Origin: a virus
IMG/VR virus record: IMGVR_UViG_3300033066_001842
DNA length: 64,000 nucleotides
Strand: one strand, 5' to 3'
Shown: positions 804 to 39,159 of the stretch, piece by piece
Position numbering within the stretch: position 1 is the first letter of the stretch
How the letters are laid out: every line of letters begins with the position of its first letter
The notes under the pieces: model-generated
Databases searched by the model: none
Told to the model about the DNA's origin: nothing
The model's input: the letters and a program-made list of their open reading frames with translations, nothing else
Made by a program: the position numbers and the translations under genes

Positions 804-824
804 TAAGTGGGTTTGTAGTAGCAA

Positions 825-1250
825 TTGGGAAAACAGGGGTTTTGCAAACCTAAGTTGCCAGTTCAACTCTGGCCTTATCCACCAATATTTTTAGTGTTTA
901 AAGATAAAGAAAAAAGAAAAGCCTACGATACAAATTGGAATAATTTAAATAGGCAACGTAAAAGAGACATAAATAAGAAATGGAAAGCTAAACAGCAAGA
1001 AGCTTTCCAAAGTATTAAAAATTTGTATAAGTGTTATTTTTGTAGTGAAGCTAATTCAGTTTGTTTAGATTTTCATCATGTCAATCCGAAAACTAAAAAA
1101 TTTAATGTAGCTAAAATGTCTGGAAGTTTTAGTATGGAAAATCTACTTAACGAAATTTCAAAATGTGTTGTTCTCTGTGCCAACTGTCATAGAAAATTAC
1201 ATGCCAATCTTCTGCCTGATCCTTTCGATAATCCCACCCAAGGGATATAA
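825..1250 (+). CDS. HNH homing endonuclease
   Basis: CYFCSEANSVCLDFHHVNP...CANCHRKLH: HNH motif with paired Cys zinc knuckle; located inside the tRNA cluster. Confidence 0.7.
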   Translation: MGKQGFCKPKLPVQLWPYPPIFLVFKDKEKRKAYDTNWNNLNRQRKRDINKKWKAKQQEAFQSIKNLYKCYFCSEANSVCLDFHHVNPKTKKFNVAKMSGSFSMENLLNEISKCVVLCANCHRKLHANLLPDPFDNPTQGI

Positions 1251-3187: not shown

Positions 3188-4013
3188 CGTTCCAATCCTT
3201 GTATTGTTTCTTGTTTACTTCCAACTCATATTCATTGGGTTCGCCGCCGTGTCTTAAGTAATAGCGAGTTCTAACTTTCCACCATGGCCAAGGTTTCTTA
3301 CTATTGAAAAAACGATGTACCATAATGATCGTATCGGGATCACTAAAGAATCTACTTGAACCTCTGGCATTGTGTACGTCCAAAGGATCATAACCTTCAG
3401 CATACTCTAGGTTTGGGGGTTTTCTAATATGGTGGGAAAAGATAATCGCCATATTAGTATCACTATTAATTTTTTGAAATTCAGCAAATACATTGAAGAT
3501 TTTTCCCATAGCTGTATTATTACTTTCTTCTTGGCTATGAAATTTTCCAATAGGATCAATAATCAAAATATTGGGTTTAACCTCTTCAATTACTTTTGCA
3601 AATAAATCTATACCTTCGTCTGTATCCAATTTGAGCTTTGGATTTTTTGAAACATAGAATAAATTCTTTTCTTTATACTCCTGTTTTACGCCGTCTAAAA
3701 TACGAAGCCCCCTATCTTGGAGGCTTAATTCGCCAACTTCCGCTTCTGCATACAATACCTTTACGGGCTTGGGTATTTTGAAATCCTTAATATTGAATAG
3801 GGTTTCCCCTGTAGCTAGGGCTCTAGCTGCATTGATACAAATAAAGGATTTACCAACTTTTGAATCTCCGTAGATACCAACAATTCCCCCTTGTGGAATA
3901 ATTGCAGGTTCTACATAAGATGCAACATCTTCAAACACCTTATCGGCTAGATGTTGGAAAGATTCAGCTTTTATTGTAGGTTCTTCGGAAGGTTTCTTAT
4001 TAAATACAGACAA
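3090..4013 (-). CDS. RecA-superfamily P-loop ATPase (DnaB C-terminal/RadA-like)
   Basis: Walker A GIYGDSKVGKSF and Walker B ILIIDPIGKF; 307 aa; the called ORF overlaps the 3' end of the neighbouring gene, so the true start may be internal. Confidence 0.45.
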   Translation of the reverse strand: MSVFNKKPSEEPTIKAESFQHLADKVFEDVASYVEPAIIPQGGIVGIYGDSKVGKSFICINAARALATGETLFNIKDFKIPKPVKVLYAEAEVGELSLQDRGLRILDGVKQEYKEKNLFYVSKNPKLKLDTDEGIDLFAKVIEEVKPNILIIDPIGKFHSQEESNNTAMGKIFNVFAEFQKINSDTNMAIIFSHHIRKPPNLEYAEGYDPLDVHNARGSSRFFSDPDTIIMVHRFFNSKKPWPWWKVRTRYYLRHGGEPNEYELEVNKKQYKDWNDGDLRVKYPRTEAYKKPFKGKPKDPEEQVPLF

Positions 4014-4030: not shown

Positions 4031-4477
4031 TTAATTTCCAGTAATAAGGTTTCTCAAAATCCCAATGCGGGAGGGTTTAGGATCTGGAGCTACATAAGTG
4101 TTAGGTTCGAAAGCGGCTGTTTCTTCCTCAATCTTAATAAGTTCTGGCATAGTAACAGCTTCTAACCTCTCCAACTCGCAAGCTGTGGCTACAAACCAAC
4201 CAACTTTTGCTAGATCATCCTCTGGTACACCATCTTTAATTTCCCCAATGTATTCATCAAATTCCAGTTGGTGAATATATATCTTAAGGTGTTTCAAAGC
4301 ATGGTTGGCTCTTTCCAATTGGTACTCTTTATTATTAATACCCTTGCGCCAATTGTTGCGATCATACTTAACCTCACCCTCTCGGAAAATTTTTCCAATA
4401 CGCTTTTCAGCTTCTAGCGGAATCTGTGTTAAATCAAAGTTTTCAATATCAGTTTTAACTGCCATACATTTTACCAT
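4031..4477 (-). CDS. hypothetical protein
   Basis: 148-aa ORF in the minus-strand block. Confidence 0.4.
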   Translation of the reverse strand: MVKCMAVKTDIENFDLTQIPLEAEKRIGKIFREGEVKYDRNNWRKGINNKEYQLERANHALKHLKIYIHQLEFDEYIGEIKDGVPEDDLAKVGWFVATACELERLEAVTMPELIKIEEETAAFEPNTYVAPDPKPSRIGILRNLITGN

Positions 4478-5282
4478 CTACAACAAACTTACCATTATTA
4501 ATAATCACAACATAATCGTTAAAATTTCCATTTGGATAAACATACCCATAATTGAAACCATTAACAATTCTTGTCGGCTTATTTTTCAAAAATGTGGGAT
4601 TCAAATTACTTAAGCAAGGAATCGTAACACCTGTATGATAATCGGATGAGTCAAGACGGTTAATATCCGTATACGCATAATACGTATGAATGTGTCCAGC
4701 CCTAATCGATACCCTAGTTTGGTCAACCAAATATTTGGCAGGATTAACAACAGTATTTCGTCCATTTAATATAACATCCCCATGTACAAAATGAAGTTTC
4801 CCAAGCTTGAAAAACTCCCCTTGTTCATAAATTTTCCAGCCGACATCTCTTAAACTAAAATATGTTTCGGGTTCTAACATCCCTTGAAGTTGTGGGTGTT
4901 TCTCAACAAATTGATCTATCCAAACTTCATGATTACCTTTGAGCCAAACAAGTTCAGTACTAGAACTTTCTTGCAAAGGTACTAAGACATTATGATAAAA
5001 CCCATCCAACTCAGTCTTTAGTCTAAGCTTCTCTCTATATAGTGGTTTATCAGCATTCCAGTGTGAAATGCAACCGCAGTCCAATTGATCGCCACCTAAA
5101 ATAATAGTATCAGGTTCAAAGTCTTCAATAAACTCTAAAGCACTATTTAAAGCTTTTACATTGTGTGTTGTACAGAGTGTATCTTTCCCACCCTTTTTTC
5201 GCCATTCATGCCCATAGTGTATATCATATAAAGCTACAAATTTTTTCACTTCAGTACAATCTCCTGTTGGCAATGGGGACAA
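4455..5282 (-). CDS. calcineurin-like metallophosphoesterase
   Basis: ordered motifs DIHYGH, GGDQLD, GNHEVW, HFVHGD and GHIHT. Confidence 0.65.
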   Translation of the reverse strand: MSPLPTGDCTEVKKFVALYDIHYGHEWRKKGGKDTLCTTHNVKALNSALEFIEDFEPDTIILGGDQLDCGCISHWNADKPLYREKLRLKTELDGFYHNVLVPLQESSSTELVWLKGNHEVWIDQFVEKHPQLQGMLEPETYFSLRDVGWKIYEQGEFFKLGKLHFVHGDVILNGRNTVVNPAKYLVDQTRVSIRAGHIHTYYAYTDINRLDSSDYHTGVTIPCLSNLNPTFLKNKPTRIVNGFNYGYVYPNGNFNDYVVIINNGKFVVDGKMYGS

Positions 5283-5987: not shown

Positions 5988-6201
5988 AATGAGAAATTAC
6001 CTTTGAAGCTGCTACTTCCCAAGCTTCTCGTATTTCAATCCTTAAATCTTCCCAACGTGGTAAATTTTCACCAGTAACTAGGGATTTATTGCCAGTATAA
6101 GAACAATATCCCTCATAGGCAAATCTTCCCAAATCGGCGGCTTTAGTTTCAGGCTTAGGGGTTTCGTCATTTTCCATAGATTTTGTTGGTGTAATCATCA
6201 A
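5929..6201 (-). CDS. hypothetical protein
   Basis: 90-aa ORF. Confidence 0.35.
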   Translation of the reverse strand: MMITPTKSMENDETPKPETKAADLGRFAYEGYCSYTGNKSLVTGENLPRWEDLRIEIREAWEVAASKVISHYEDFILQEFLSTYTGKKDE

Positions 6202-6523
6202 TTGCTTTCCTTTCTCTTAGCAACATCCCATATTCGGTAATCAAACAAGTCAACTTTCCGTTCTCCTCTTCAAATGAAATAGACCCATCTACTAGAGGGG
6301 CCGCAACAGGCAAAGGTGTCAACGTATTCAAATCTTTTAAATACATGATCGCCCTATATATCGCCTGTTTAGTAGGGGCTTTAGCTTTCTTCCCATCCCA
6401 TCCAGGACCAAGAAATCCATACGCCATTACCTCCATTAACCTATCATTCAAACTCAATTTCCACATCAGCAATTCAGCCGACTTAGTATTTAAAGTAATT
6501 CCATCAATATCTTCAGTTGTCAT
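6167..6523 (-). CDS. hypothetical protein
   Basis: 118-aa ORF. Confidence 0.4.
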   Translation of the reverse strand: MTTEDIDGITLNTKSAELLMWKLSLNDRLMEVMAYGFLGPGWDGKKAKAPTKQAIYRAIMYLKDLNTLTPLPVAAPLVDGSISFEEENGKLTCLITEYGMLLRERKAIDDYTNKIYGK

Positions 6524-6798
6524 TTACTCTTCCCTAAAACTGGATGCTCCACAATTTCCACAACTATAATTCTCATTTAAATCTCTAGCTGTTTCACAAT
6601 ATATACAATATACAGTTTTCTTTTTTTGGTTTCGTATCCATCTTTAATTTCGCAATAAGATGTTTATCATGAGGGCTCAACCCCGATGGACAGTAAGCGC
6701 TATAGCTAACAACACTACTCGTATAATGAGAACGTCTGTGAGTACTTTTATCGTAGTCATCATCATCCCAATCTCCAGGACCTCCACAGCTTGCCATA

Positions 6799-9630
6799 TT
6801 ATTTAATCCTCTTGATTTGAGCCCAGTTGGCTCCTCTATACATTTTCACAGGACACCAAAATCCTTTAATCCTCTTATCCTCTTGTTCCATAACCGAAAG
6901 AAACTCTATACATTGTTCGTCTGTCCAAACCTTTGGCTTCTCAAATACCAACTCATCGTGGACTTGCAAAAGTGGAACACCATCCATACCATACCTATCA
7001 AAGAAATTAATCATATCCCCTTGAACGTGATCGGCTGAAGTTCCTTGCCCCAAGAATGAAAACGCTTGTTTTGCACATTCCAAAGGCTCATCTTGCAATC
7101 TAATAAATCTACCAGTAGCAGCCTTTAGAATACCAGTTTTTTCAATCTCTTGCAATACCCTCTGTTGCCATTCCCGAATAATCTTAAACTTTCCAAAGTA
7201 TTTCCCTTCCAACAAATCATTAGCTTTGGCACGAGCCTCTAATGACGTATCTTTAAAAATACGTTGGGCCAAATTTACACCAGAAAAAGCAATAATTCCG
7301 CCAGCGTATTCCCAATCATAGTAGGGTACAATCGCCCCCATCTTAATTGCCGCTTTAATCTTGGGTTTAGCTAAGTCCTCTTCTCTCAATAAGATAATAC
7401 CTTCCCCATAATTGCTACCATGGGCCACAGATTTAGCTACCGCTCTCTCCGTTTTGCCCAACATCTTAGCGGCGTCTTTGAATGCCCCATCAGAAACGTT
7501 TACAATCCATTGGAAAGCATCTTTTTCAATCTTGTATGTATCAAATCCGGCATACCACATACAATTATGAGAATAAAAACCATTAGATATATAAGTTTTA
7601 GACGTAGTAGTAATGCAAACTAATGGTTGTGGATTATCATATTCTATAACATTTAATACAGTAGCTCGCCCCTCACCATTTTTACCCCAAGTTCTCTTAC
7701 CATTCCATATTTTTTTAGATTTTTGTAAAAGTCTCTCTGGCCTTTTTTCTCCTAAAAAACGCAAACTATTCCAGATACCTGTTAATTGTATTGTTTTATG
7801 TGTTTTTCTGTATTGAGGTTGTTTCTTTTTTATTGAAATAGAAAAATTAAAACAATCTTTATAAAGAAGTTTTTCTACTTTATCAAAAATAGGTCCATCA
7901 GCTTGCCCAAATTGCACTCCACCAGAAGAAACGCTACCTTCACCATCAAAAATACCAGCAATATACCCATCATTAAATTGTGTTTTTGTAGTCCAAGGTT
8001 CAGCAGTAAATGGTAAAATATCACCAGTTACAATATCTTTCATTTCTACCCAAACCCTAGATAAATAACCTTTTTTTGACTTACGCAAAACAACTACTAA
8101 ATGGTCATCAGCGGCAGTTAGACTACCTCTATTGGTTTCAATAGTAAAAGTTTTTTTTCTTAAGAACTGAAGGTCAGTAATAGAACTTTCTTTAAATCTA
8201 GTACCTCTATTTCCTTGATCTTGGTTTTCATCAAATCCAATCAATTTATCATCTACAAATAAATCTTTAGCATAAATCCAAGTTAAATCTTCTTTCAATA
8301 TTTTTGTGTAGGGATCTACGCACATACGGAATTCCAAATTGGACTTATCAGCTTTAATCAAACATTGGTCATCCCTTTTTGGAATAATAGCAACCCTGGC
8401 TTGAGCAAAGGGGGATTGTTCCTCTTGTGGTGTATCCTCATCATATCCAGGAATATTTTGGAAATTAGGATCTTTAGAACTAAAACGCCCAGTACTTGTA
8501 CCAATAACAATAAATCGCGGATGCATTAAACCGTCATCCCCGAAAAATTTATCGTCAAACCAACTCTTAAAGCCTTTACCCGCACCCTTGTATTGGTACG
8601 CTTTTATCAACAATTGATAGGGTAATGGGTGACTGTCAATTCCCTGTACAAATTCGGTGAGCCCAACATCATTATTATCGGCTAACTCTGTTAGGGCTTT
8701 TTCAATAGCTTCTGCATTAAATTTATCAAGAAAGATCTTGTGCTTTTTGAAATAGTTAACAGCAGCAGCAGGAGCATTAGGATTAAAATGTTCATATTTC
8801 TTAGTTTTTCCGCTCTGTGTATAGGGGAAAAGCTTTTCTTTTTCGTCATCGCTAATCTTATCCAATCTGGCAATTAGATCACGATCTACGCGAACTCCAC
8901 CCTTTTGCATCAAATGAGCAATATAGGAAACCTTCAAAAGATCCCGATAGAATTGATAGGGAACACCCTTCTCTTCCATCTCTTTCAGCATTTCTATAAA
9001 GCCCTCGCGTGCCACATAACTATCCATGGCATTGTAACCAAAGACTTTATGGCTTGGACAGGGGCCAGTACATGTGACGCCACGACACATTTTAAACTGA
9101 GGCAACCCACAATAGAATGTGTTCATTGTCCACAAATTAAGGAATCCTAAGCTTCCTTTTTCTCCACCAACCTTTCCCCCGCTACTCTGTTTCACCAAAT
9201 CCTGATTCAACAAAAAGTGGGTAATCATCCCATCTTCAAAGCAATCTAGGGAAATCTCTCGCCCAAGTACTTTCTCAATAACTTCTTTTTCAGCCCCAAT
9301 AACAGAATAGCCAACCAATCTAGTCATACCTAATTCCGCCACCTGTACAATAAAGTCTACAACTTCTTTACTGTAAGGGGCGGAGGCAGCTAAATTATGG
9401 TTGGCTAAACCTGTAATGGTTGGCTTATTAGTTTTGGGATCGAACTCAAAATCTATTCCCGTAAACTCAGAGGGATTCTCTAAAATTTCACGCAAATATT
9501 TATTCCCTTCGGCATACTTTGGCCAAAAGGATTTTCCATCAAGTGATTTCGAGTTCTCAATACTTGTGAAAAGATTTAACTGTACTTCACGATTCCCGTA
9601 AAGGTCTATCTCTTCGAATCTCTTTGACAT
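6799..9630 (-). CDS. family A DNA polymerase (Pol I-like) interrupted by an intein
   Basis: Pol A motif A DKSNLEFRM (cf. DYSQIELRI), motif B RAVAKSVAHGSNYGEG, motif C LQVHDELVF; the 943-aa length is inflated by a ~253-aa insert. Confidence 0.75.
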   Translation of the reverse strand: MSKRFEEIDLYGNREVQLNLFTSIENSKSLDGKSFWPKYAEGNKYLREILENPSEFTGIDFEFDPKTNKPTITGLANHNLAASAPYSKEVVDFIVQVAELGMTRLVGYSVIGAEKEVIEKVLGREISLDCFEDGMITHFLLNQDLVKQSSGGKVGGEKGSLGFLNLWTMNTFYCGLPQFKMCRGVTCTGPCPSHKVFGYNAMDSYVAREGFIEMLKEMEEKGVPYQFYRDLLKVSYIAHLMQKGGVRVDRDLIARLDKISDDEKEKLFPYTQSGKTKKYEHFNPNAPAAAVNYFKKHKIFLDKFNAEAIEKALTELADNNDVGLTEFVQGIDSHPLPYQLLIKAYQYKGAGKGFKSWFDDKFFGDDGLMHPRFIVIGTSTGRFSSKDPNFQNIPGYDEDTPQEEQSPFAQARVAIIPKRDDQCLIKADKSNLEFRMCVDPYTKILKEDLTWIYAKDLFVDDKLIGFDENQDQGNRGTRFKESSITDLQFLRKKTFTIETNRGSLTAADDHLVVVLRKSKKGYLSRVWVEMKDIVTGDILPFTAEPWTTKTQFNDGYIAGIFDGEGSVSSGGVQFGQADGPIFDKVEKLLYKDCFNFSISIKKKQPQYRKTHKTIQLTGIWNSLRFLGEKRPERLLQKSKKIWNGKRTWGKNGEGRATVLNVIEYDNPQPLVCITTTSKTYISNGFYSHNCMWYAGFDTYKIEKDAFQWIVNVSDGAFKDAAKMLGKTERAVAKSVAHGSNYGEGIILLREEDLAKPKIKAAIKMGAIVPYYDWEYAGGIIAFSGVNLAQRIFKDTSLEARAKANDLLEGKYFGKFKIIREWQQRVLQEIEKTGILKAATGRFIRLQDEPLECAKQAFSFLGQGTSADHVQGDMINFFDRYGMDGVPLLQVHDELVFEKPKVWTDEQCIEFLSVMEQEDKRIKGFWCPVKMYRGANWAQIKRIK
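7564..8322 (-). mobile_element. intein with LAGLIDADG homing endonuclease inside the DNA polymerase
   Basis: the insert starts at Cys (LEFRM|CVDPYTKI) right after Pol motif A and ends SHN|C (codons checked on the DNA: TAT TCT CAT AAT TGT); internal GYIAGIFDGEGSV LAGLIDADG-type motif. Confidence 0.65.
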
Positions 9631-9910
9631 CTAAACTTTCATGACCATCTACAATAAAATTAAAAATCTTGTTTGGATCATGTACCCAAGCAAATTCCCA
9701 ATTGATTCCAAAATAAAAACCACAAAATACACAATTTGGAAAAAGCCTATTTACATAAACATCATCTACACAGTTGGGACAGTGTTGCTTCAAATAAAAT
9801 AAAGGTCTTTGCGGTCCTACTTCAGCGTGCAAATCCCAATTAATATAATCTTCAACAACCCGTAGTTGCCCGCTCTCGACAAGTTTTTGAAATTCTTTCC
9901 ATGAGATCAT
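9587..9910 (-). CDS. hypothetical Cys-rich small protein
   Basis: CPNCVDD...CVFCG zinc-ribbon-like pairs. Confidence 0.35.
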   Translation of the reverse strand: MISWKEFQKLVESGQLRVVEDYINWDLHAEVGPQRPLFYLKQHCPNCVDDVYVNRLFPNCVFCGFYFGINWEFAWVHDPNKIFNFIVDGHESLDVKEIRRDRPLRES

Positions 9911-13127: not shown

Positions 13128-13350
13128 CTTTTTCCTTTTCTAATTTTGCGTTTTCTTGGTTAAGTTTGTGTTTCAATTGTAGAAACTCACGATACTCTTC
13201 AATATCGTCAAGCTGTTTATACAATTTTTTCTTTTCTTTATATCTGAACGCTTGAAAAACTTTTTGTCCAGATAGTAGGGGATTAAAAACCTGATCGATG
13301 AAAAATACAACAATCAAAGCTATTCCAATTAATTCAACAAATTGGAGCAT
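13114..13350 (-). CDS. small membrane protein (overlaps the SPFH gene start; NfeD-like partner?)
   Basis: one TM helix IGIALIVVFFI then a charged coiled coil; 4-nt overlap with the downstream SPFH gene suggests translational coupling. Confidence 0.35.
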   Translation of the reverse strand: MLQFVELIGIALIVVFFIDQVFNPLLSGQKVFQAFRYKEKKKLYKQLDDIEEYREFLQLKHKLNQENAKLEKEKDALR

Positions 13351-13505
13351 ATTTTTTCCTTGTTTGAATTTTGAACTATATTTCGCAAATAGTAACAGAG
13401 GGTATTACCCTACCGCTCCCATATTGTAAAGAGCAATCAAACCTTTAGGGTTCTTTTACCCGTGGTGGGAGCAATAAACTATCGGCATCGGTTCAAAAAA
13501 GTTGT

Positions 13506-13638
13506 TGGATGGGGTGAGATTCGAACTCACAACCTCTCGTTTAGCATACGATAAAGTTAATCAAAACGGTTCAAATTTACGTTTGAACTAAAAGGTAGAC
13601 TAACAGTTTTTAGCGCTCTACCATTGAGCTACCCACCC
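13506..13638 (-). ncRNA. tRNA-like RNA with a ~70-nt insert replacing the anticodon arm (element E1)
   Basis: ends pair as a 7-bp acceptor stem GGGTGGG/CCCATCC; D-arm GCTC-AATGGTA-GAGC; T-arm GTGAG-TTCGAAT-CTCAC; discriminator A, no CCA; the insert has a CTAAAA/TTTTAG helix closing a 14-nt loop and a GTTCAAA/TTTGAAC hairpin. Confidence 0.45.
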
Positions 13639-13652
13639 ATAAAAAAATCGGA

Positions 13653-13781
13653 GATTGGTAAAGGGATTCGAACCCTTATTAGCGGCTCTGAATGCAATAA
13701 CCTTTATCTAGTCGGTTCTTATAGAACTAAAAAGGGCGACAAAGATGTTTTTACGCTGTCCTACCATTAGACGATACCAAT
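13653..13781 (-). ncRNA. tRNA-like RNA with a ~70-nt insert replacing the anticodon arm (element E2, paralogue of E1)
   Basis: acceptor ATTGGTA/TACCAAT perfect; D-arm GTCT-AATGGTA-GGAC; T-arm AAGGG-TTCGAAT-CCCTT; no CCA; the insert shares TAAAAAC, a 6-bp helix TAAAAA/TTTTTA closing a 14-nt loop, a GTTC-TATAA-GAAC hairpin and GAACCG with E1. Confidence 0.45.
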
Positions 13782-13856
13782 CATAAAAGAAAATAATTAG
13801 AACTAAAAAGGGCGAAAGAACGTTTTATTCACCACTTCCCCGTATTTGGAGCGCCT

Positions 13857-13930
13857 TTCCAGAATCGAACTGGATACCATTGTTTTGCAGACAATCGACT
13901 AACCATTTGTCTTAAAGTGCATATGGTGGG
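13857..13930 (-). tRNA. tRNA-Cys(GCA)
   Basis: acceptor GCACTTT/AAGGCGC (A3·C70 mismatch), perfect anticodon stem ATTGT/ACAAT with loop CTGCAAA, T-arm TCCAG-TTCGATT-CTGGA, CCA encoded. Confidence 0.65.
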
Positions 13931-15408: not shown

Positions 15409-16155
15409 TTAAGCGAACAAATAATTCAGAAGGGTTTTCCCAACCTTAATATTCGTGTCCGCTTCAAACTCGTTTGCACGGGCTCTGGCTTTACGGATGG
15501 CGCGAATCAACATATCACACCGATCCAAAACCTCAGCCTTTTGTGCTGGTGTATACTTTGCTGACCATTCCTGTTTGGTAAGGGTTCCAACAGGAACGTC
15601 TTTATCAATCAATTGAACTTGTGCGGGATGCTTATCAGTAGCAGGAGCCAATGTAAGAACCTCTTTATCTTTCTTGGTTCTCACCCCCGTAACAACTCGC
15701 GCCTGATAAATCCCCTTACCCTTTTGTTCATCTGGGCGGAAAGCTTTAGCAGGATCAAGAGTAGGAATCGCACGCGCCAAATTCTGAACTTCTTTCAAAC
15801 TCTTTTCCAGCGCCAAAAGTGCAGTGGCGGGAATATTCTTCAAAAGAATAGTTCCATCCTCCAACACTACATCGGCTTTGGCTTGTGTGTTGGCCACATC
15901 GATTTGAACTGAGGAATCCATAGCTTTGGCTACAATTCCAGAAACCCAATCCAACTCATGCTCCACAGTGGTTTGAATATCCAACTGCTCTTCTGTAACA
16001 GGAGGACGCCCCTCTTCATTACTTTGAAAAGTAAGCAACTTCGATTCAAAAAGCTGCCCCTTATTAGTAAACGTTGTGGTTAAATCTCCAAGGGCTTTAG
16101 TAGCTTGCCCTGCAAGATTGGATTCTACAGCCAAAATTTCATGAAGTTTTGACAT
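15409..16155 (-). CDS. hypothetical protein
   Basis: 248-aa ORF between the tRNA-like region and the Ro60 orthologue; no motif recognised. Confidence 0.45.
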   Translation of the reverse strand: MSKLHEILAVESNLAGQATKALGDLTTTFTNKGQLFESKLLTFQSNEEGRPPVTEEQLDIQTTVEHELDWVSGIVAKAMDSSVQIDVANTQAKADVVLEDGTILLKNIPATALLALEKSLKEVQNLARAIPTLDPAKAFRPDEQKGKGIYQARVVTGVRTKKDKEVLTLAPATDKHPAQVQLIDKDVPVGTLTKQEWSAKYTPAQKAEVLDRCDMLIRAIRKARARANEFEADTNIKVGKTLLNYLFA

Positions 16156-16520: not shown

Positions 16521-18212
16521 TTAATCTTCGTCTTCAGTTAAGGCTTTTTCCGAATTAAACGCATGAATTACACTTGTTACATTCGGATCAAATCCCGTTA
16601 CATCCAACGAATAAGGATCACTATCACTAGCAAAACCAGCAACACCATAACCAGTAGACTGCATACCAAGAGACATCAATCTCGTTTTGGGCTTATTCAT
16701 AAGTTTACGATAATTTTGCGTTAATGTCAAGGGGTGTTCCCCTGTATTGAAATCGTTATCGGTGATATGAATGAAGCAATCCACGTCTTGCTTGTTCTTG
16801 ATAGCATGTTTAATTGGTAAACCTGCATCAGTGTAACCCGTATTATATTTTTTGGCTTTTGTAATAGCCGTTGAAATATTGTCGGTTTTGGTCAATGGCA
16901 AGTCATTCAGAACACTAGAGAAACATTTGACATCACACCATGGTTCTCTTTTTACAATGGTAAGGGCGATTGTGGCGGCGGCTTCACAGAAAGACATTAA
17001 ACCGTTCGCCATCATGCTAGACATTGAGCGCGAAACGTCAACAGAAACCATAAAGTTTTTGCCAGTAGCGGGGGCAACATCGAAAGAGTTGTTGAAAGCT
17101 TCTTCCAAAGCTTCTTGAATTTTGGGAACAGGTTTCCAGGTTAATGAACCTTTCAAACCTTGTCCTTTTCCATAAGTGCGCAGAGCAAACAAAAGTTTAA
17201 GAGGGTGAATTCCAGCTTTTGTCAATTGCTCAATATTGGTAAGGCGACGTACAACCGTTTTGACATCCTCATTAGTTCCTGAAAGTAAACCACTCGCAGT
17301 TAATGAAGAAAGTTGGCGAACGGTTGCCATGTATGGCATTTTCGCAAGTAGGGCTTGTTGAACTTGAGGCACATTTTTAAACCATGTGGGAATCATTTCA
17401 TGGGTCATATCGGTAGCCCCAATCAATTCCACAAGACGTTTAATTTGTGCGTCAGATTTTTCATTTTCTTTCCATGATTGGATTTCAATGAAAGCTTCAA
17501 TCTGGCGTCCCCCCTTTGTCAAAATTTTAGGATCAATATCGGCTAAAGCTTTTAAAACTCCAGCTTCATTTCCATTAACCACATAATTAATGAAAGAGTT
17601 TGTAATTGATCCTTGAAACTCAGGGTGGGAAAGGCGAAGTAAGTCCTGGTGCGACCAACCATCACGTTGACGATACTTCAATAATTGATAAACCAGTGAG
17701 TCAAATGACTTATCGGTGTACCAGTCACCTACATAACGTTTCAACATGCGGCCCCATCCACGCATTCCCGTAACAATTTCCGCAAAGTGAAATAAATCAG
17801 TACCAGTATTGGCAACATGTTTTAGTTCATTGAGGAACATATCACGAACAGTACGACTAGGATGCGATGCGCCTAGAGCCAAAGTATATAACATTGGTTC
17901 TTTTGTAAGAGCACGACGTTGGCTTGAAATTTCTCGAATCTTTTGAACAACTTCTTTGGGGAAATTTTGAATCATCGCTCGGATGTTCGCCGTATTTTGG
18001 GCCAAGAGTTGTTGCGATCCTACAGCAAAGGTATGATTTTCCACACCCAAGATAAGGAATTTTTCGAGAAACTGTTCAGGAGTAAGTTTCAGTGAGTATC
18101 CGCCCCCAAAATTAGGAACAGAGAACTTTGCATTTTTCCCCGTAACAGGTTTTGTTACAGGATTGCTTTTTGCAGTTTTGTTTTTCTTTTGAGAGTAAGT
18201 AGAAATGGGCAT
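16521..18212 (-). CDS. Ro60/Rsr-like protein (TROVE domain plus C-terminal vWA)
   Basis: 563 aa; ~370-aa N-terminal helical-repeat region followed by a vWA fold with MIDAS VSVDVSRSMS (DxSxS); size and domain order match Ro60 orthologues. Confidence 0.55.
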   Translation of the reverse strand: MPISTYSQKKNKTAKSNPVTKPVTGKNAKFSVPNFGGGYSLKLTPEQFLEKFLILGVENHTFAVGSQQLLAQNTANIRAMIQNFPKEVVQKIREISSQRRALTKEPMLYTLALGASHPSRTVRDMFLNELKHVANTGTDLFHFAEIVTGMRGWGRMLKRYVGDWYTDKSFDSLVYQLLKYRQRDGWSHQDLLRLSHPEFQGSITNSFINYVVNGNEAGVLKALADIDPKILTKGGRQIEAFIEIQSWKENEKSDAQIKRLVELIGATDMTHEMIPTWFKNVPQVQQALLAKMPYMATVRQLSSLTASGLLSGTNEDVKTVVRRLTNIEQLTKAGIHPLKLLFALRTYGKGQGLKGSLTWKPVPKIQEALEEAFNNSFDVAPATGKNFMVSVDVSRSMSSMMANGLMSFCEAAATIALTIVKREPWCDVKCFSSVLNDLPLTKTDNISTAITKAKKYNTGYTDAGLPIKHAIKNKQDVDCFIHITDNDFNTGEHPLTLTQNYRKLMNKPKTRLMSLGMQSTGYGVAGFASDSDPYSLDVTGFDPNVTSVIHAFNSEKALTEDED

Positions 18213-18386
18213 ATTTTTCTTTCTTTATATTGAACTAAATGAACGTAAAGGCTAGTGGTATGAATGGTAACTATAAGCCTTATACTGCGGCTCAACACAA
18301 AATGGCTGATTGGACTAAATTAGTTGGCAAGGACGTTGGTATGCAAAGTAACAATAATCGTTGCCATACGGCCCAACCCAATAAAA

Positions 18387-34317: not shown

Positions 34318-34397
34318 GGCCCTGTACCGCCCTCGCCTTCTAAGCGTGAAAAGCGTAACGGATGAAAATGTGGGTTCGAATCCCTCCAGGGCTTCCA
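34318..34397 (+). tRNA. atypical tRNA-like gene, anticodon arm consistent with Arg(UCU), no canonical D-arm
   Basis: acceptor GGCCCTG/CAGGGCT (G·U at 1-72), T-arm GTGGG-TTCGAAT-CCCTC, CCA encoded; anticodon arm CTCGC-CTTCTAA-GCGTG sits only 5 nt after position 9, then a 21-nt unstructured stretch precedes the T-arm. Confidence 0.3.
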
Positions 34398-34417: not shown

Positions 34418-34492
34418 GGCTAGTTAGCTGAGATGGATTAGCTTTGGTCTGAAAAACCAAGCAGCTTGGATCGTTACCAAGACTAGCCACCA
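34418..34492 (+). tRNA. tRNA-Phe(GAA)
   Basis: perfect acceptor GGCTAGT/ACTAGCC, anticodon stem TTGGT/ACCAA loop CTGAAAA, T-arm CTTGG-ATCGTTA-CCAAG, CCA encoded. Confidence 0.7.
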
Positions 34493-34497
34493 GTTTT

Positions 34498-34574
34498 TGC
34501 ACAGATAGTTTAATTGGTAAAACAATGGATTCCAAACCCATTAGATGAGAGTTCAAATCTTTCTCTGTGTGCCA
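34498..34574 (+). tRNA. tRNA-Trp(CCA)
   Basis: acceptor GCACAGA/TCTGTGT, anticodon loop TTCCAAA closed by AATGG/CCATT with an A·C at 31-39, T-arm GAGAG-TTCAAAT-CTTTC, CCA encoded. Confidence 0.55.
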
Positions 34575-34712
34575 ATCTTACCAGAATTATACCCGTTTAT
34601 TTCTTAGCCGAAACAATAGTCTAGCTACCTATTGCGGGGTTCCGATTATTGCATTTTAGGACGCACAAGGAACATGCATTACTCTAGTGCTATAATTCTG
34701 GTATAGTCTTTT

Positions 34713-34787
34713 GTTCCGAGTTAGCTCAAAGGTAGAGCAAGCGACTGATAATCGTTAGACCATAGTTCGATTCTATGACTCGGAACC
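34713..34787 (+). tRNA. tRNA-Ile(GAU)
   Basis: perfect acceptor GTTCCGA/TCGGAAC, D-arm GCTC-AAAGGTA-GAGC, anticodon loop CTGATAA, T-arm CATAG-TTCGATT-CTATG; CCA not encoded. Confidence 0.65.
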
Positions 34788-34988
34788 ATTTTTATGCCTG
34801 AAACAAAAAAACAAATACAAGATAGACTTAAAACTGTAATGCCAATTGGTGACACAGATTTCACAGACATGTCTGAAACATCTTTTGTCATGTGGTTTAA
34901 TGGTCACTGCTTCCTGTGGAAATTTGATAAAGATTCCCAAAAATGGGATTGTATTGACGAACTCTAGTTTATATGTTATGCTAAATGT

Positions 34989-35064
34989 GGGTCTGTAACT
35001 CAATTGGCAGAGTAATTGGCTTTTAACCAAGAGGTTGGGGGTTCAATTCCCTCCAGACCCACCA
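34989..35064 (+). tRNA. tRNA-Lys(UUU)
   Basis: perfect acceptor GGGTCTG/CAGACCC, D-arm ACTC-AATTGGCA-GAGT, anticodon loop CTTTTAA, CCA encoded. Confidence 0.7.
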
Positions 35065-35073
35065 AATTTTTAT

Positions 35074-35148
35074 GGTCCTTTCGTCTAACGGATAAGGCAT
35101 TGCGCTACGAACGCAAAAATATAGGTTCGATTCCTATAGGGACTTCCA
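35074..35148 (+). tRNA. tRNA-Arg(ACG)
   Basis: acceptor GGTCCTT/AGGGACT (2 G·U), perfect anticodon stem TTGCG/CGCAA loop CTACGAA, T-arm ATAGG-TTCGATT-CCTAT, CCA encoded. Confidence 0.7.
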
Positions 35149-35157
35149 CAATTTTAC

Positions 35158-35248
35158 GGAAAGGTGACAGAGTGGTAATGTGCGATTCTGCTAAAATCAG
35201 GCTAACCTCTAAAGGGTTACGAAGGTTCGATCCCTTCCTTTTCCGCCA
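35158..35248 (+). tRNA. tRNA-Ser(GCU)
   Basis: 91 nt with long variable arm; acceptor GGAAAGG/CTTTTCC, anticodon loop CTGCTAA, T-arm GAAGG-TTCGATC-CCTTC, CCA encoded. Confidence 0.6.
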
Positions 35249-35434
35249 AAACTTTTAAAGGACATTTTTATGGCACGTATTTCTAAAGAACCTTGTGAAT
35301 TTTGCAAGGGTGAAAATTGTGTAGAAGTTTCTCAACCTAATGATTGGGATTCCGATTACAAAATCCATTGCCTAAAATGTGATAAAGTTTATTGGGTAGA
35401 CGGTGAAGACGGTTAATCTGCTATCCTAATTTTA

Positions 35435-35529
35435 TGGGAGTGATGCAAGGTTGGTAGACTTGCGCTGGTCTGTAAAACCAGTCTTTCTTAGAAAGTTAAC
35501 ACATTGGTTCAAATCCATTCACTCCCACC
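35435..35529 (+). tRNA. tRNA-Tyr(GUA)
   Basis: 95 nt with long variable arm; perfect acceptor GGGAGTG/CACTCCC, perfect anticodon stem CTGGT/ACCAG loop CTGTAAA, T-loop TTCAAAT, CCA encoded. Confidence 0.7.
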
Positions 35530-35551
35530 ATTTCTTTTTTAAGGACACCCC

Positions 35552-35929
35552 ATGCTAAGACGTTTTTTCCTAACCCTTCTACCTGCCTCGCTTTTGGCGA
35601 AACCATCCCCCAAAATTTCTACTTTTGAAAAACAATGTAGAATAATTGCATCCGAAAAATTAAAATTTCTTCGGGAAAATGTAACTCAACCGTTAGCTAT
35701 TAACGAACATAGATGGTTTACAAATTCTAAATACATTATATGTTATGAAATGTTTTTAGATGGAACAATCTGTTTACCCAATCCGGCAGGTTTAAAAGGC
35801 ACACAAATAGTTTGTTACGAATGTCCTAGTGATGAATCTAGAAAAAATTTTATCAACCTCTTAATCCTCACCAAGGGTCAATATAATACAGGGCGGTATT
35901 GCATCTTCGAAACTTCCGAATTTCTCTAA
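35552..35929 (+). CDS. secreted hypothetical protein inside the tRNA cluster
   Basis: signal-like MLRRFFLTLLPASLLAKPS; 125 aa, 5 Cys. Confidence 0.4.
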   Translation: MLRRFFLTLLPASLLAKPSPKISTFEKQCRIIASEKLKFLRENVTQPLAINEHRWFTNSKYIICYEMFLDGTICLPNPAGLKGTQIVCYECPSDESRKNFINLLILTKGQYNTGRYCIFETSEFL

Positions 35930-36171
35930 AAATGACACAATTAGAACAAATTATAGAATGGCAAGAACGTCTTGATAAGATACATCTTGCCCTATATCCT
36001 GTTTCTAAAGTGACGCCTATACCTGCCTTTAAAAATATAAACGATATCAAAGCTCTCCCCATATGGAAAATTAAAAAACTATATGGGGAAATTTTCTGTG
36101 CTTACTGTGAATCTGATAAAATCCTCAAACGAGACTCCTGCTCCAACTGTGGGGCTCCATACAACCATTGA
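35899..36171 (+). CDS. zinc-ribbon small protein
   Basis: CAYCESD...CSNCG. Confidence 0.3.
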   Translation: MHLRNFRISLKMTQLEQIIEWQERLDKIHLALYPVSKVTPIPAFKNINDIKALPIWKIKKLYGEIFCAYCESDKILKRDSCSNCGAPYNH

Positions 36172-36209
36172 CTACCTTATCAATAAATGATATAATCTTT
36201 ATATGGAAG

Positions 36210-36301
36210 GTGGGCTGCAATGGTGCGGAAACTGTCTTGAAAACAGTCCTATGTAGCGATCACTGCATAAGGGTTCGATTCCTTCACCTTCCTCCATTTT
36301 A
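36210..36301 (+). tRNA. tRNA-Ser(UGA)
   Basis: 92 nt with long variable arm; perfect acceptor GGAAGGT/ACCTTCC, perfect anticodon stem ACTGT/ACAGT loop CTTGAAA, CCA encoded. Confidence 0.65.
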
Positions 36302-36452
36302 TTTATGAAATATGATAAGGTCCATACTATAAATTGGAAAGTTATTGAAAAACAAATTGGAAAACCAAAAACAATTGACGACTATAGAAGGACTTATAAA
36401 ATAATTAACGGTAAATTAGTAGAGACTACTCCCGATTTACCCCACAAAACTT

Positions 36453-36530
36453 TGGCCTCCTAGCTCCAATCGGTAGAGGCAACGGACTTAAAATCCGTAC
36501 AGTCTGGGTTCGAATCCCAGGGGGGCTACC
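36453..36530 (+). tRNA. tRNA with Leu anticodon UAA but short (5-nt) variable region
   Basis: acceptor GGCCTCC/GGGGGCT (2 G·U), perfect anticodon stem ACGGA/TCCGT loop CTTAAAA, T-arm CTGGG-TTCGAAT-CCCAG, discriminator A73, CCA encoded. Confidence 0.5.
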
Positions 36531-36554
36531 ATTTTTGTTGTAAACTAAATATAT

Positions 36555-36630
36555 GGCGCGTTGATGTAATTGGCAACCATACCAGTCTTAGAAACTGTTT
36601 TTATAGGTTCGAATCCTATACGCGCCACCA
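36555..36630 (+). tRNA. tRNA with Leu anticodon UAG but short (5-nt) variable region
   Basis: perfect acceptor GGCGCGT/ACGCGCC, anticodon loop CTTAGAA (4 bp plus one mismatch in the stem), T-arm ATAGG-TTCGAAT-CCTAT, A73, CCA encoded. Confidence 0.5.
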
Positions 36631-36633
36631 ATT

Positions 36634-36725
36634 CCCCGTTGGGAGGATGGCTCCTCAAGCGGCTTTATAATCCGTCACACCAGATCAGTGTCTAGAACGT
36701 AGTTCGATTCTACGGGCGGGGACCA
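36634..36725 (+). tRNA. aberrant 92-nt type-II-like tRNA with a 9-nt anticodon loop CUUUAUAAU
   Basis: acceptor CCCCGTT/GGCGGGG (2 G·U), D-stem GGAG/CTCC, 4-bp anticodon stem GCGG/CCGT closing a 9-nt loop, variable stem-loop ACAC-CAGATCA-GTGT, perfect T-arm CGTAG-TTCGATT-CTACG, A73, CCA encoded. Confidence 0.35.
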
Positions 36726-36772
36726 ATTTTCTGTCCGAAAAATGTATACAAATTTCCATCAAGGATAAAAAA

Positions 36773-37639
36773 ATGCAATTCCATTATGCCGTCTATTTCT
36801 ATGTCGGCTTTTCTGGACATTCCCCACACAGCAGCTTTAAACATTCTGCTGGTGAAATCCACATTAACTTAGACAAACCCCGTATTGAAAAAGAATTAGA
36901 ACGCAACAATATGGGTATCCTCATAATGGCACGCCTAACCTCCTCTGACGCCATTATGGAAACCATCGGCCTCCTAAACGCCCTAGAACATACATTTCCC
37001 TCTGAAAGAGTGGATCTCTTCATCCCCTATTATCCCTATTCCCGCGCTGACCGCGTAATCGGAAATGGTGGCGGGGATTCTTTTGGCGTAGAAATCATTA
37101 CCAACCTTTTTTCCGATGAAATTTGTCCTAACATTGGAAAAATTATCACCCTGGACACCCATTCTGCCGTTTCTCATTCCGTAGTAGATTCAGATATCCT
37201 CTGTCACTACGAATTATTCCAAGAATCAGGAATTAATATCCCCGTCCACGCCAACATTATTACCGTAGCTCCCGACAAAGGCGCTTCCAATCGTGCTTCC
37301 GTCTTTGCATCCTGTCTCAAAACAGGTTTAATCACTGCTTCCAAAGAACGCGATCTTGGTGGCCACATCTCCTATTACAAAGTTCCAGAAAACCTCCCCT
37401 CCAACGCCTACTACATCGTAATCGATGATATCTGTGATGGGGGCGCAACCTTCAATCTATTAGCAAAAAGTTTGCCCCAAAATGCTAAAAAAATTCTAAT
37501 CGTAACACACGGCATTTTTTCCCAAGGTGTAAATGCTATTCATGGTTATGATTATATTGTTACAACAAATTCAATTCATGATTTTCCAGCAACTTCAAAA
37601 AACTTTATTGTAAAGGATCTTACGAAATGTCTTGTGTAA
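36773..37639 (+). CDS. prs: ribose-phosphate pyrophosphokinase (PRPP synthetase)
   Basis: FIPYYPYSRADR (cf. Prs PYFGYARQDR) and PRPP-binding YIVIDDICDGGATF (cf. VDDIIDTGGT). Confidence 0.65.
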   Translation: MQFHYAVYFYVGFSGHSPHSSFKHSAGEIHINLDKPRIEKELERNNMGILIMARLTSSDAIMETIGLLNALEHTFPSERVDLFIPYYPYSRADRVIGNGGGDSFGVEIITNLFSDEICPNIGKIITLDTHSAVSHSVVDSDILCHYELFQESGINIPVHANIITVAPDKGASNRASVFASCLKTGLITASKERDLGGHISYYKVPENLPSNAYYIVIDDICDGGATFNLLAKSLPQNAKKILIVTHGIFSQGVNAIHGYDYIVTTNSIHDFPATSKNFIVKDLTKCLV

Positions 37640-39078
37640 ACCCTCTCCTCCATACTGATGTTTACAAGATGGGCCACATGGAGCAATATGCCCCTGGAAC
37701 TACCCGTATATATTCCAACATCGTAACCCGTTCCGCAAGAAAATATCCCGCCGTCCTAAATTTCGGAACACAATACTATCTTTCCGAATATCTTTCCAAA
37801 CCAATTACCAAAGCCCATGTGGACGAATTTCTCGACCTAAACAATCGTATCCTTTCCTCCACATCCAACGAAGTTTACACCAAATTACGCGCCCTTGAAA
37901 AATTAGGCTTCGTTCCCCTAATCATCAAAGCTTTACCAGAAGGTAACGTTTACCCAATTGGGACACCCCTTCTCACAGCTACAAACCATCCTGACTATCC
38001 AGAATTCGCGTGGACTGTCGGATTTTACGAAAGCTTACTTCTAAAAATCTGGAACACTTGTACCGTAGCCACTTTTTCGCGCAAACTAAAACAACTGTGC
38101 TACCTTTACGCCGACCTAACCTGTGATTCCAATCTCCATGTGGATTACCAAGTTCACGACTTCGGCTATCGTGGCTGCTCATCTGAAGAAACTGCCGCAA
38201 TCTCCGGTATGTCTCACCTAGTAAATTTTCTAGGCACAGATACCGTTCTCGCCGTAAAATACGCCAAAGACTACTATTACGCAACGGACCCAATCGGTCT
38301 ATCTGTCCCTGCATCCGAACATTCTGTAATGTGTTCTTTTGGCCCAACCAACGAAATCGATGCATTCCGCCACATGCTTAAAACATATCCTACTGGAATT
38401 GTTTCAATCGTGTGTGACACCTACAACATTTGGAAAGTTCTTTCAGAATTCGTACCCCTTCTGAAAGACGAAATTCTTGCGCGTAACGGAAAAGTAGTAT
38501 TTCGCCCCGACTCAGGCGACCAAGAAAAAATCCTTTGTGGAAACCCTGACGCTTCCGACCCTCTAGAAAAGAAAGGTGTCTTCCAACTCCTCTTCGAACA
38601 ATTTGGTGAATTTCCAAACAAAAAAGGATATCGCACCCTCCACCCAAAAGTGGGTGTTGTCTATGGTGACGGATTCTACTACGATAAATTCCACACGGTT
38701 TTCAACCGGATGAAAACTGACAAAATCTCCTCAGCCGAACTAACAGTAGGGGTTGGCGGAATTTTGCTCCAACAACACAACCGCGATGATATGGGTTTTT
38801 CCATGAAAGCCACCTATATCGAACAAAACGGTAACGGCGTAAACATCTTTAAAGACCCAATTACCGATCCTGGCAAAAAATCCCTCAAAGGACTGCTCTC
38901 CGTAACCCAAGAACCCTACCATGGGGGCTATACTTGGAAAACCAACCAAGAAATCACATGGGAACAAGAGAAAAGAGGGGCTTTACAGGTGGTCTTTAAT
39001 CGTGGTAAACTATTAAATCAGACTACTTTTGATGAAATTCGCAAAAGGGCCGATTCCTCAATCGTTAAAAGATATTAA
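37627..39078 (+). CDS. nadV: nicotinamide phosphoribosyltransferase (NadV/NAMPT-like)
   Basis: 483 aa, the size expected for NadV; HDFGYRG motif of the NAPRTase/NAMPT family; sits immediately downstream of prs, whose product PRPP is its co-substrate. Confidence 0.6.
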   Translation: MSCVNPLLHTDVYKMGHMEQYAPGTTRIYSNIVTRSARKYPAVLNFGTQYYLSEYLSKPITKAHVDEFLDLNNRILSSTSNEVYTKLRALEKLGFVPLIIKALPEGNVYPIGTPLLTATNHPDYPEFAWTVGFYESLLLKIWNTCTVATFSRKLKQLCYLYADLTCDSNLHVDYQVHDFGYRGCSSEETAAISGMSHLVNFLGTDTVLAVKYAKDYYYATDPIGLSVPASEHSVMCSFGPTNEIDAFRHMLKTYPTGIVSIVCDTYNIWKVLSEFVPLLKDEILARNGKVVFRPDSGDQEKILCGNPDASDPLEKKGVFQLLFEQFGEFPNKKGYRTLHPKVGVVYGDGFYYDKFHTVFNRMKTDKISSAELTVGVGGILLQQHNRDDMGFSMKATYIEQNGNGVNIFKDPITDPGKKSLKGLLSVTQEPYHGGYTWKTNQEITWEQEKRGALQVVFNRGKLLNQTTFDEIRKRADSSIVKRY

Positions 39079-39083
39079 TTTTT

Positions 39084-39159
39084 GCTTGGGAGGCTGAAGA
39101 GTGGAGGCACCGCCCTTACAAGACGGCTAAAGTGGGTTCAACTCCCACCCCAAGTACCA
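39084..39159 (+). tRNA. tRNA-Val(UAC)
   Basis: acceptor GCTTGGG/CCCAAGT (G·U at 1-72), anticodon loop CTTACAA (stem has one C·A), T-arm GTGGG-TTCAACT-CCCAC, CCA encoded. Confidence 0.55.

Follow-up and report, generated by a model that had tools for sequence, protein, structure and literature searches.

How would a phage use a gene resembling that for phosphoribosyl pyrophosphate (PRPP) synthetase (Prs) and, next to it, one resembling that for nicotinamide phosphoribosyltransferase (Nampt), if no gene for a nicotinamide mononucleotide (NMN) adenylyltransferase (NMNAT) accompanies them? The question is raised by two adjacent genes in a 64,000-nucleotide stretch of viral DNA, IMG/VR record IMGVR_UViG_3300033066_001842; we refer to this whole stretch as the window. 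Nicotinamide adenine dinucleotide (NAD+) depletion ranks among the most common anti-phage strategies of bacteria, and the principal answer that phages are known to have is NARP1. A preliminary description had read the pair as a route from PRPP and nicotinamide to NMN that counters NAD-depleting defences. Our analysis agrees with the proposed role, in that NAD+ regeneration is the most likely function and the gene order is that of NARP1. It does not favour the proposed chemistry, because the first protein has the hallmarks of the NARP1 enzyme Adps and fails the canonical Prs thresholds, and because the order is that of NARP1. Our preferred reading, to which we give a probability of about 0.6, is that of an NAD+ reconstitution operon of NARP1 type whose transferase is clamp-less. 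This type of system is known; the part that appears to be new is a clade of Adps-partnered transferases without the signature motif of Namat, the second NARP1 enzyme.

In NARP1, a prs-like gene is followed by a nampt-like gene, with no NMNAT gene (Osterman et al. 2024, bioRxiv 10.1101/2024.02.11.579819). Adps pyrophosphorylates ADP-ribose and is inactive on ribose-5-phosphate, and Namat joins the resulting ADP-ribose pyrophosphate (ADPR-PP) to nicotinamide, giving NAD+ directly (10.1101/2024.02.11.579819). Since NARP1 makes NAD+ in this direct way, the missing NMNAT is expected and is not a gap.

Both open reading frames (ORFs) lie where they had been described, and an independent gene caller found the same two on the public contig, with identical proteins. 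Their assignment to the PRPP-synthetase and Nampt superfamilies also held, with Pfam, NCBIfam and PHROG matches far beyond chance. The features of the pair are as follows.

36773–37639, plus strand: Adps-like gene of the PRPP-synthetase superfamily (288 amino acids, aa); predicted ADP-ribose pyrophosphate synthetase
37627–39078, plus strand: Nampt/Namat-family gene (483 aa); putative nicotinamide transferase of a third clade ("W3"), with Pfam, NCBIfam and PHROG matches
37627–37639, plus strand: 13-nt gene overlap; the ATG of the second gene (37627) precedes the TAA of the first (37637–37639)
37424–37453, plus strand: PP-loop motif D218-D-I-C-D-G-G-A-T-F227 of the Adps-like protein, from alignment
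38320–38322, plus strand: codon for the catalytic (phospho-)histidine of the Nampt/Namat core, His232 in ASEHSVM, from alignment
38755–38787, plus strand: SCH-equivalent segment G377-G-I-L-L-Q-Q-H-N-R-D387 of the 483-aa protein, from alignment

The first protein and its pairing

The 288-aa protein scored 87.3 bits against TIGR01251 (8e-25; cut-off 113) and fell below every curated Prs cut-off, with 71 bits against NF002320 (cut-off 297) and scores under the gathering thresholds of PF13793 and PF14572. On the TIGR01251 scale, E. coli Prs reaches 423 bits, validated Adps 96–106, other Namat-paired proteins 81–139 and the window protein 87. A match to phrog_619 (1.7e-50) does not discriminate, as this family matches Adps and E. 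coli Prs alike. Nor does comparison with known structures: even ICP1 Adps matched only canonical Prs (36–59 bits) in the copy of the PDB that we searched, which holds no Adps structure. We also considered whether the ORF encodes a short Prs of the class III archaeal type. This was rejected, given a BLASTP score against E. coli Prs of 47 bits, compared with 122–147 bits for archaeal Prs, and the Adps-specific PP loop.

The structure of ICP1 Adps has three hallmarks: a remodelled PP loop, a catalytic lysine (K185) and loss of the C-terminal α11–α12 module (Liu et al., PMC13586617). The remodelled loop spans C215–S220 and is followed by F221 (PMC13586617). We aligned the 288-aa protein with the validated Adps of SPbetaL1, FADO and ICP1, and with E. 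coli Prs. The PP loop reads DDICDGGATF in the window and DDICDGAASF in ICP1, as against DDMIDTGGTL in E. coli Prs; canonical Prs are marked by the ribose-5-phosphate loop DD.IDT.GT and a regulatory C-terminus. The form DDICDGG.TF is also found in Adps-type genes that lie beside a clamp-bearing Namat, in LeBron, ctKR88, Phabio and an Acinetobacter contig, and the Acinetobacter loop (DDICDGGATF) is identical to that of the window. Among the 120 closest database homologues of the 288-aa protein, all of them 257–308 aa long, 112 have this form of the loop. K191 aligns with K185 of the catalytic hairpin, and the acceptor-site residues R91, H130, D168, D218, D219 and D222 align with R87, H121, D161, D212, D213 and D216. 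The adenine-contact residues F18 and F92 are replaced by H24 and I96, at positions that vary even among validated Adps. The α11–α12 module is absent: the tail after THGIF is 44 aa long, versus 67 aa in E. coli, and the last ~25 residues of E. coli Prs lie beyond the end of the alignment. Together, the 288-aa protein carries all the sequence hallmarks of Adps that we tested, and it is predicted to be one.

A neighbour-joining tree of Prs-like proteins groups the 288-aa protein with Adps partners and well away from E. coli Prs. In this tree, proteins encoded next to third-clade transferases are interleaved with those encoded next to canonical Namat, including the three validated Adps, and none of 200 bootstraps recovered either group as monophyletic. 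The distance between the two groups (1.47) is about equal to that within them, and both are ~2.1 from E. coli Prs.

The association of the two genes is strongly conserved. An Adps-type gene adjoins the transferase gene in all 11 IMG/VR relatives (46–56% identity), in 30 of the 33 third-clade members on bacterial contigs or contigs of metagenome-assembled genomes (MAGs), and in further metagenomic relatives. For comparison, 97% of Adps-clade genes adjoin a Namat homologue (10.1101/2024.02.11.579819). In the literature, a gene has been counted as Namat if an adps gene lies within 10 genes; in the window, an Adps-type gene lies directly upstream of the 483-aa gene and overlaps it. That the two genes form one operon is borne out by their shared strand and 13-nt overlap, and the overlap suggests translational coupling. 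An overlap of 13 nt is also present in the closest relative, and one of 4 nt in a bacterial member (L021).

Bacterial versions of the pair lie in operons comprising a gene for an NrtR-family regulator (Nudix and WHD_NrtR domains), an Adps-type gene, a transferase gene and, sometimes, a gene for an ADP-ribosylglycohydrolase (ARH). Mucilaginibacter robiniae has NrtR, an Adps-like protein, a third-clade member and ARH in one operon, and a 590-kb contig has an Adps-like protein, a third-clade member and NrtR. NrtR regulators respond to ADP-ribose, and the bacterial operons therefore appear to be ADP-ribose-centred. The position after nrtR and adps is occupied by third-clade transferases in Pedobacter and Mucilaginibacter, and by canonical Namat in Flavobacterium, Chitinophaga, Taibaiella and others. 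Since they share the same Adps family and the same operon slot, the two transferase types look interchangeable. The third-clade members in Pedobacter and Mucilaginibacter are 50–53% identical to the window transferase. Unlike these chromosomal nrtR-prs-nadV operons, the window copy is on a phage and has no NrtR regulator.

The preliminary description saw no NMNAT gene in the window, and tblastn, motif and Pfam searches all came back empty. With one NadM-Nudix protein and one cytidylyltransferase-type protein of NARP2-type phages as queries, tblastn gave no match, either in the window or across 11 related viral loci; there is no H-x-G-H nucleotidyltransferase motif in any frame of the window, and CTP_transf_like matched none of 20 non-structural window ORFs. 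No Nmnat gene was found within 10 kb on either side of the pair in the 11 viral relatives, or within 6 kb on either side in 80 bacterial loci. Of the flanking sequence on the 71.7-kb contig, the search took in ~6 kb beyond the right end of the window, which holds unannotated genes with no Pfam match and no NMNAT; the part of the contig to the left was outside the search.

The second protein and its clade

The 483-aa protein belongs to the family to which it had been assigned, with no indication of a different phosphoribosyltransferase family. It matches PF04095 NAPRTase (1.9e-41, 142.8 bits; cut-off 20.8), PF18127 NAMPT_N (1.7e-11, 44.7 bits; cut-off 25), NCBIfam NF006629 (498 bits; cut-off 405) and phrog_448 (9e-151). 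The last of these contains both Namat and Nampt and does not discriminate between them, and the scores against the C-terminal families phrog_15800 and phrog_12872 are intermediate. Among solved structures, SPbetaL1 Namat (9W5X) is the closest relative, with 319 bits versus 285 bits for human NAMPT; the second-best PDB match is 9KE8. Structures of SPbetaL1 Namat are available as 9W5X and 9W5W (Lan et al., PMC12774641). The catalytic core is retained (H232, F179, Y13, D11, D205, R182, A229, R293, D295, G347, D348, R386 and D387), aligns with the residues through which SPbetaL1 Namat makes its contacts, and is invariant across the third clade. It comprises the phospho-histidine, the Phe and Tyrʹ that stack on nicotinamide, an Asp that reads the amide, and ribose-binding Arg and Asp residues.

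More than 150 relatives share the third clade with the 483-aa protein. A neighbour-joining tree resolved three clades: Namat (100% bootstrap support), Nampt (100%) and that of the window protein (78%). Mean distances are 1.14 between the third clade and Namat, 1.28 between the third clade and Nampt, and 1.45 between Namat and Nampt. We compared diagnostic alignment columns and hidden Markov model (HMM) scores using 77, 55 and 64 sequences per group. The window protein scored 483 bits with the Namat model, 413 with the Nampt model and 716 with that of its own clade, and the third clade has 20 diagnostic columns in common with Namat, as against 12 with Nampt. Among those shared with Namat are V234, M235 and C236, beside the catalytic histidine, and Y346 of IYGD, beside residues that contact the AMP phosphate. 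Overall, the sequence of the 483-aa protein leans towards Namat rather than Nampt.

The signatures of the three groups, given as SCH or equivalent segment, HDF segment and GD segment, are as follows.

Namat, validated or Adps-paired (SPbetaL1, FADO, ICP1, LeBron, ctKR88, Phabio): GS[FY]TY[QN][YH].TRD; HDFS.RG; IYGD[SA]IT
Nampt (human; KVP40-like ValKK3; Cp1R7A, next to NadM-Nudix; Mx1): G[GA][GA]LLQ...RD; HDFG.RG; IQGDG
Window clade (window protein and its 120 nearest homologues): GG[LI]LLQQH[NS]RD; HDFG[YF]R; mostly YGDG

The first two window-clade signatures occur in all 120 nearest homologues (52–65% identity). His384, which lies within the first of them, is nearly invariant in the third clade. 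IYGDG and EHSVMC of the window protein are Namat-like, the Nampt signature being IQGDG, EHSTIT and G[GA][GA]LLQ, and its Nampt-matching signatures are limited to the GG.LLQ-like segment and three glycine positions. The HDFGYRG segment of the window protein is identical to that of human NAMPT. At the SCL (β1–β2 loop), Namat supplies an arginine, lysine or tyrosine as a stacking residue (Lan et al. 2026). R38 of the window protein aligns with this residue of SPbetaL1 Namat (R40); the third-clade consensus at this position is lysine, as in Nampt.

The third clade occurs on metagenome contigs of viruses (for example IMGVR_UViG_3300030518_000005, 175 kb, and IMGVR_UViG_3300028592_000004, 229 kb), on chromosomes of Pedobacter and Mucilaginibacter, and in several MAGs. 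A search of 50,697 deposited phage genomes gave no member, the best match being 40% identical, and the clade has no description in the NARP1, Namat and Adps literature (10.1101/2024.02.11.579819, PMC12774641, PMC13586617). Bacterial NARP1 has been validated biochemically for pfNARP1 of Paenibacillus foliorum, whose transferase is 71.9% identical to SPbetaL1 Namat; this degree of identity suggests that the P. foliorum enzyme is of the clamp-bearing type and not a third-clade member.

Proposed chemistry and competing readings

Family membership, catalytic residues, operon structure and conserved pairing are read from the sequence; both substrate specificities and the counter-defence role we infer, as follows. 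As expected of an Adps, to judge by its family membership, the 288-aa protein would form ADPR-PP by placing the β-γ pyrophosphate of ATP on ADP-ribose, at the terminal ribose; ADP-ribose is what host NADase defence effectors produce. The 483-aa protein would then displace the pyrophosphate of ADPR-PP with nicotinamide, using His232, Asp205, Arg293, Phe179 and Tyr13ʹ, and release NAD+ and pyrophosphate; here the argument is one of operon logic and of overall affinity to Namat. As NAD+ would be formed directly in this second step, no NMNAT would be needed. The operon would let the phage replicate in hosts with NAD+-depleting Thoeris, DSR, SIR2-HerA or similar systems.

The window pair resembles the NARP1 systems of Bas63, SPbetaL1, FADO and ICP1 in its gene order and the lack of a detectable NMNAT, in the PP loop, catalytic lysine and truncated C-terminus of its first protein, in the full Nampt/Namat catalytic core of its second, which has SPbetaL1 Namat as its best PDB match, and in its location in a phage accessory region. 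It differs from them in the transferase, which is 36–39% identical to validated Namat and forms a clade of its own, and several features of this protein count against an ADPR-PP-dependent reaction. The SCH motif of Namat carries an aromatic clamp, GS[FY]xYxYxTRD (Lan et al. 2026, PMC12774641). The equivalent segment of the window protein, GGILLQQHNRD (GSFTYQYNTRD in Namat), has no such clamp; isoleucine and glutamine occupy the positions of the two adenine-stacking aromatic residues. Residues through which Namat contacts its ligands (NMN phosphate, AMP moiety or adenine) take the form found in Nampt (S190G, S/A362G, S391G, Y394L, F392I, Y396Q), including glycine for serine at three phosphate-contact positions. 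Of these, G180, G349, G378 and L381 of the window protein, which correspond to Namat S190, S/A362, S391 and Y394, are among the columns shared with Nampt. The SCL is 2–5 residues shorter than in Namat and has the length found in Nampt. In the tree, the protein stands outside the fully supported Namat clade, as it does outside that of Nampt. Double clamp mutants of SPbetaL1 Namat, an enzyme with a reported strict donor preference of more than 100-fold, no longer made NAD+ from ADPR-PP or countered defence, but were still active with PRPP (PMC12774641). Lastly, the phage genome is probably incomplete, and an NMNAT may be encoded elsewhere in it. Since the window protein has no aromatic selectivity clamp, it probably prefers ADPR-PP to PRPP less strongly than the Namat studied, or does so by other means.

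These features are what would be expected if the pair were a stripped-down PRPP synthetase and a true Nampt, which would make NMN from ribose-5-phosphate, ATP and nicotinamide. The system would then be NARP2-like with its own PRPP supply, and the last step would fall to host NadR or NadM, to PncC, NadD and NadE, or to a phage NMNAT outside the window. The window protein has a Nampt-like pocket entrance (GG.LLQ, HDFGYRG, G180, G349, G378, L381 and the short SCL) and passes the NadV-type model NF006629, and clamp-deficient Namat mutants make NMN from PRPP while losing their ADPR-PP activity (PMC12774641). With such an entrance and no Namat clamp, the 483-aa protein may carry out the PRPP-to-NMN reaction of the preliminary description. 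We nonetheless consider this account of the pair, the main rival to our own, unlikely. The first protein fails the canonical Prs cut-offs and has the PP loop and C-terminal truncation of Adps; SPbetaL1 Adps, of the same family, gave no product in a control reaction for Prs activity (10.1101/2024.02.11.579819); and the Adps partners of third-clade transferases are inseparable from those of canonical Namat. The KVP40 NadV-type clade prefers PRPP and co-occurs with Nmnat in 94% of cases, which defines NARP2 (10.1101/2024.02.11.579819), whereas we found no NMNAT in the window, in the ~6 kb beyond it, in the 11 viral relatives or in the 80 bacterial loci. The window pair does share with NARP2 (KVP40 Nampt NadV and Nmnat NatV) the pocket-entrance segments GG.LLQ...RD and HDFG.RG, the SCL length and a proposed counter-defence role through NAD+ resynthesis. 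In contrast to NARP2, it includes an Adps-type partner and no Nmnat was found, and its transferase, 30–38% identical to Nampt references, lies outside the Nampt clade (100% bootstrap) and has IYGDG, not IQGDG. Furthermore, KVP40 Nampt itself made NAD+ from ADPR-PP in vitro (10.1101/2024.02.11.579819), so a Nampt-like pocket can support the ADPR-PP reaction. The same cross-activity, seen in vitro in both KVP40 Nampt and SPbetaL1 Namat, would fit an enzyme that accepts two donors, ADPR-PP and host PRPP, and makes NAD+ when ADP-ribose is abundant and NMN otherwise; it would stand between Nampt and Namat, either unspecialised or ancestral. The intermediate position of the 483-aa protein in trees, distances and HMM scores, and its combination of Namat-like core signatures with a Nampt-like entrance, point the same way. 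However, the strong conservation of QQH[NS]RD, with His384 nearly invariant, suggests a specialised rather than a relaxed pocket, and the case for two donors is purely inferential; we regard it as improbable. Least probable, in our view, is a general auxiliary metabolic module that raises NAD+ or nucleotide precursors for replication irrespective of host immunity. The chromosomal versions in Bacteroidota, under NrtR, look like housekeeping operons for NAD and ADP-ribose homeostasis, and NARP2 raises NAD+ even without a defence system (10.1101/2024.02.11.579819). NARP1, however, uses ADP-ribose, which accumulates mainly after NADase activity, and NARP1 phages do not over-produce NAD+ in defence-free cells (10.1101/2024.02.11.579819); the closest relative of the window pair has a NADAR gene and a faint Tad2-like gene nearby, and the window pair itself lies in an accessory, tRNA-rich region.

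We tentatively suggest, at somewhat short of even odds, that the 483-aa protein represents a third functional class: an Adps-partnered transferase without the aromatic clamp, which may read ADPR-PP through other determinants (His384, Y346 and V234-M235-C236) or be a dual-donor intermediate between Nampt and Namat. If so, the published clamp does not define ADPR-PP use, and the clade offers a pointer to the "additional determinants" implied by a failed clamp-transplant experiment. The clade is a large and environmentally widespread lineage of Adps-partnered transferases that lacks the proposed Namat signature motif. If its enzymes use ADPR-PP, motif-based classification into NARP1 and NARP2 will miscall them and the structural account falls short of explaining donor selectivity; if they use PRPP, specificity for ADP-ribose is not common to all Adps-type proteins. 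There is also a practical consequence: annotation pipelines label such genes "Prs + NadV", and readers therefore search for a missing NMNAT.

Surroundings of the pair and other observations

The remaining features of the locus are as follows.

34418–36630, plus strand: upstream tRNA array (Phe, Trp, Ile, Lys, Arg, Ser, Tyr, Ser, Leu, Leu) with small ORFs between the tRNAs; ARAGORN and Rfam
36761–36765, plus strand: AAGGA, a Shine-Dalgarno-like site 7 nt 5ʹ of the Adps-like start codon; read from the sequence
39084–39156, plus strand: tRNA-Val(UAC), 5 nt after the stop codon of the 483-aa gene; Rfam RF00005 (43.1 bits), anticodon loop CUUACAA, no ARAGORN call

The pair had been described as directly following a tRNA cluster. 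This is correct for the ten tRNAs upstream and incomplete downstream, where tRNA-Val lies 5 nt after the pair; with tRNAs on both sides, the pair is embedded in the array. The genes around it are those of a phage (DNA polymerase A, helicase, portal and a Gp80-like protein), and a near-identity search of the locus DNA against 50,697 phage records gave no match.

At least 23 tRNA genes are carried by the phage within 64 kb. Four Rfam tRNA matches have no ARAGORN call: 39084–39156 (plus strand), 13506–13638 (minus strand), 809–881 (plus strand) and 34318–34394 (plus strand). The second spans 133 nt and is possibly an intron-containing tRNA; the last is borderline (28.9 bits). Between tRNA-Leu(UAG) and the Adps-like gene, positions 36634–36726 (plus strand) have a tRNA-like 3ʹ end (GTAGTTCGATTCTAC...GGGGACCA) and a matching 5ʹ TCCCCG. 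This element, called neither by ARAGORN nor by Rfam at E<=1, could be a degenerate or unusual tRNA.

Several relatives of the pair have neighbours of ADP-ribose-related, tRNA-repair or counter-defence type. The closest (L030, on an IMG 3300020577 contig) has a HAD_PNKP gene just upstream of the pair and, 6–7 kb downstream, a NADAR-domain gene and a faint Tad2-like match (17132–17392 and 17823–18251). Another (L029) has an isochorismatase (nicotinamidase-like) gene 2 kb downstream of the pair (13294–13878), as well as RNA ligase/PNKP genes. On a 157-kb contig (L031, Logan SRR21529919), a 553-aa NAPRTase-family protein (8160–9821) is encoded 1.3 kb downstream of an Adps-type gene with the loop DDICDGGATF. 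It has HDFSYRG but is set apart by its SCH segment (GSFSLSSGISRD) and by a large insertion, and may be another variant of Adps-partnered transferase.

Two annotated records deserve comment. A Chitinophaga pinensis MAG (L082) encodes a "NadV" homologue with the full clamp, GSFTYEYVTRD (6001–7458), with NrtR and an Adps-type gene nearby. If the high-activity Nampt in use for NMN production is a C. pinensis enzyme, that enzyme may natively be a Namat. The 112-kb record CAKLQF020000015.1 (L024), named "Acinetobacter phage MD-2021a", resembles a bacterial chromosome, with an AraC regulator, a TauE exporter and a MetH-like gene. Its genes prsA_2 and nadV and that of a Nudix regulator make up a chromosomal NARP1-type operon, and the Nudix gene is probably an NrtR mislabelled as a bifunctional NMNAT.

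Three further loci in the window are of note. A Ro60 orthologue at 16521–18212 (minus strand; TROVE 4e-27, Ro60 vWA 1e-36) lies beside a gene for a DUF7873 protein at 15409–16155 (minus strand; 5e-66), both near tRNA-Cys and tRNA-Gln; the usual partners of Ro60/Rsr proteins are Y RNAs, which bear tRNA-like domains. In a row are genes for an AAA_25 helicase (3090–4013, minus strand), a protein with a dATP/dGTP diphosphohydrolase N-terminal domain (4031–4477, minus strand) and a calcineurin-like phosphoesterase (4455–5282, minus strand), the last two of which may belong to a module for nucleotide pools or modified bases. The family A DNA polymerase (943 aa; 6799–9630, minus strand) matches DNA_pol_A in two separate stretches with a weak LAGLIDADG_3 match (residues 553–608) between them, which suggests an intein or an inserted homing endonuclease.

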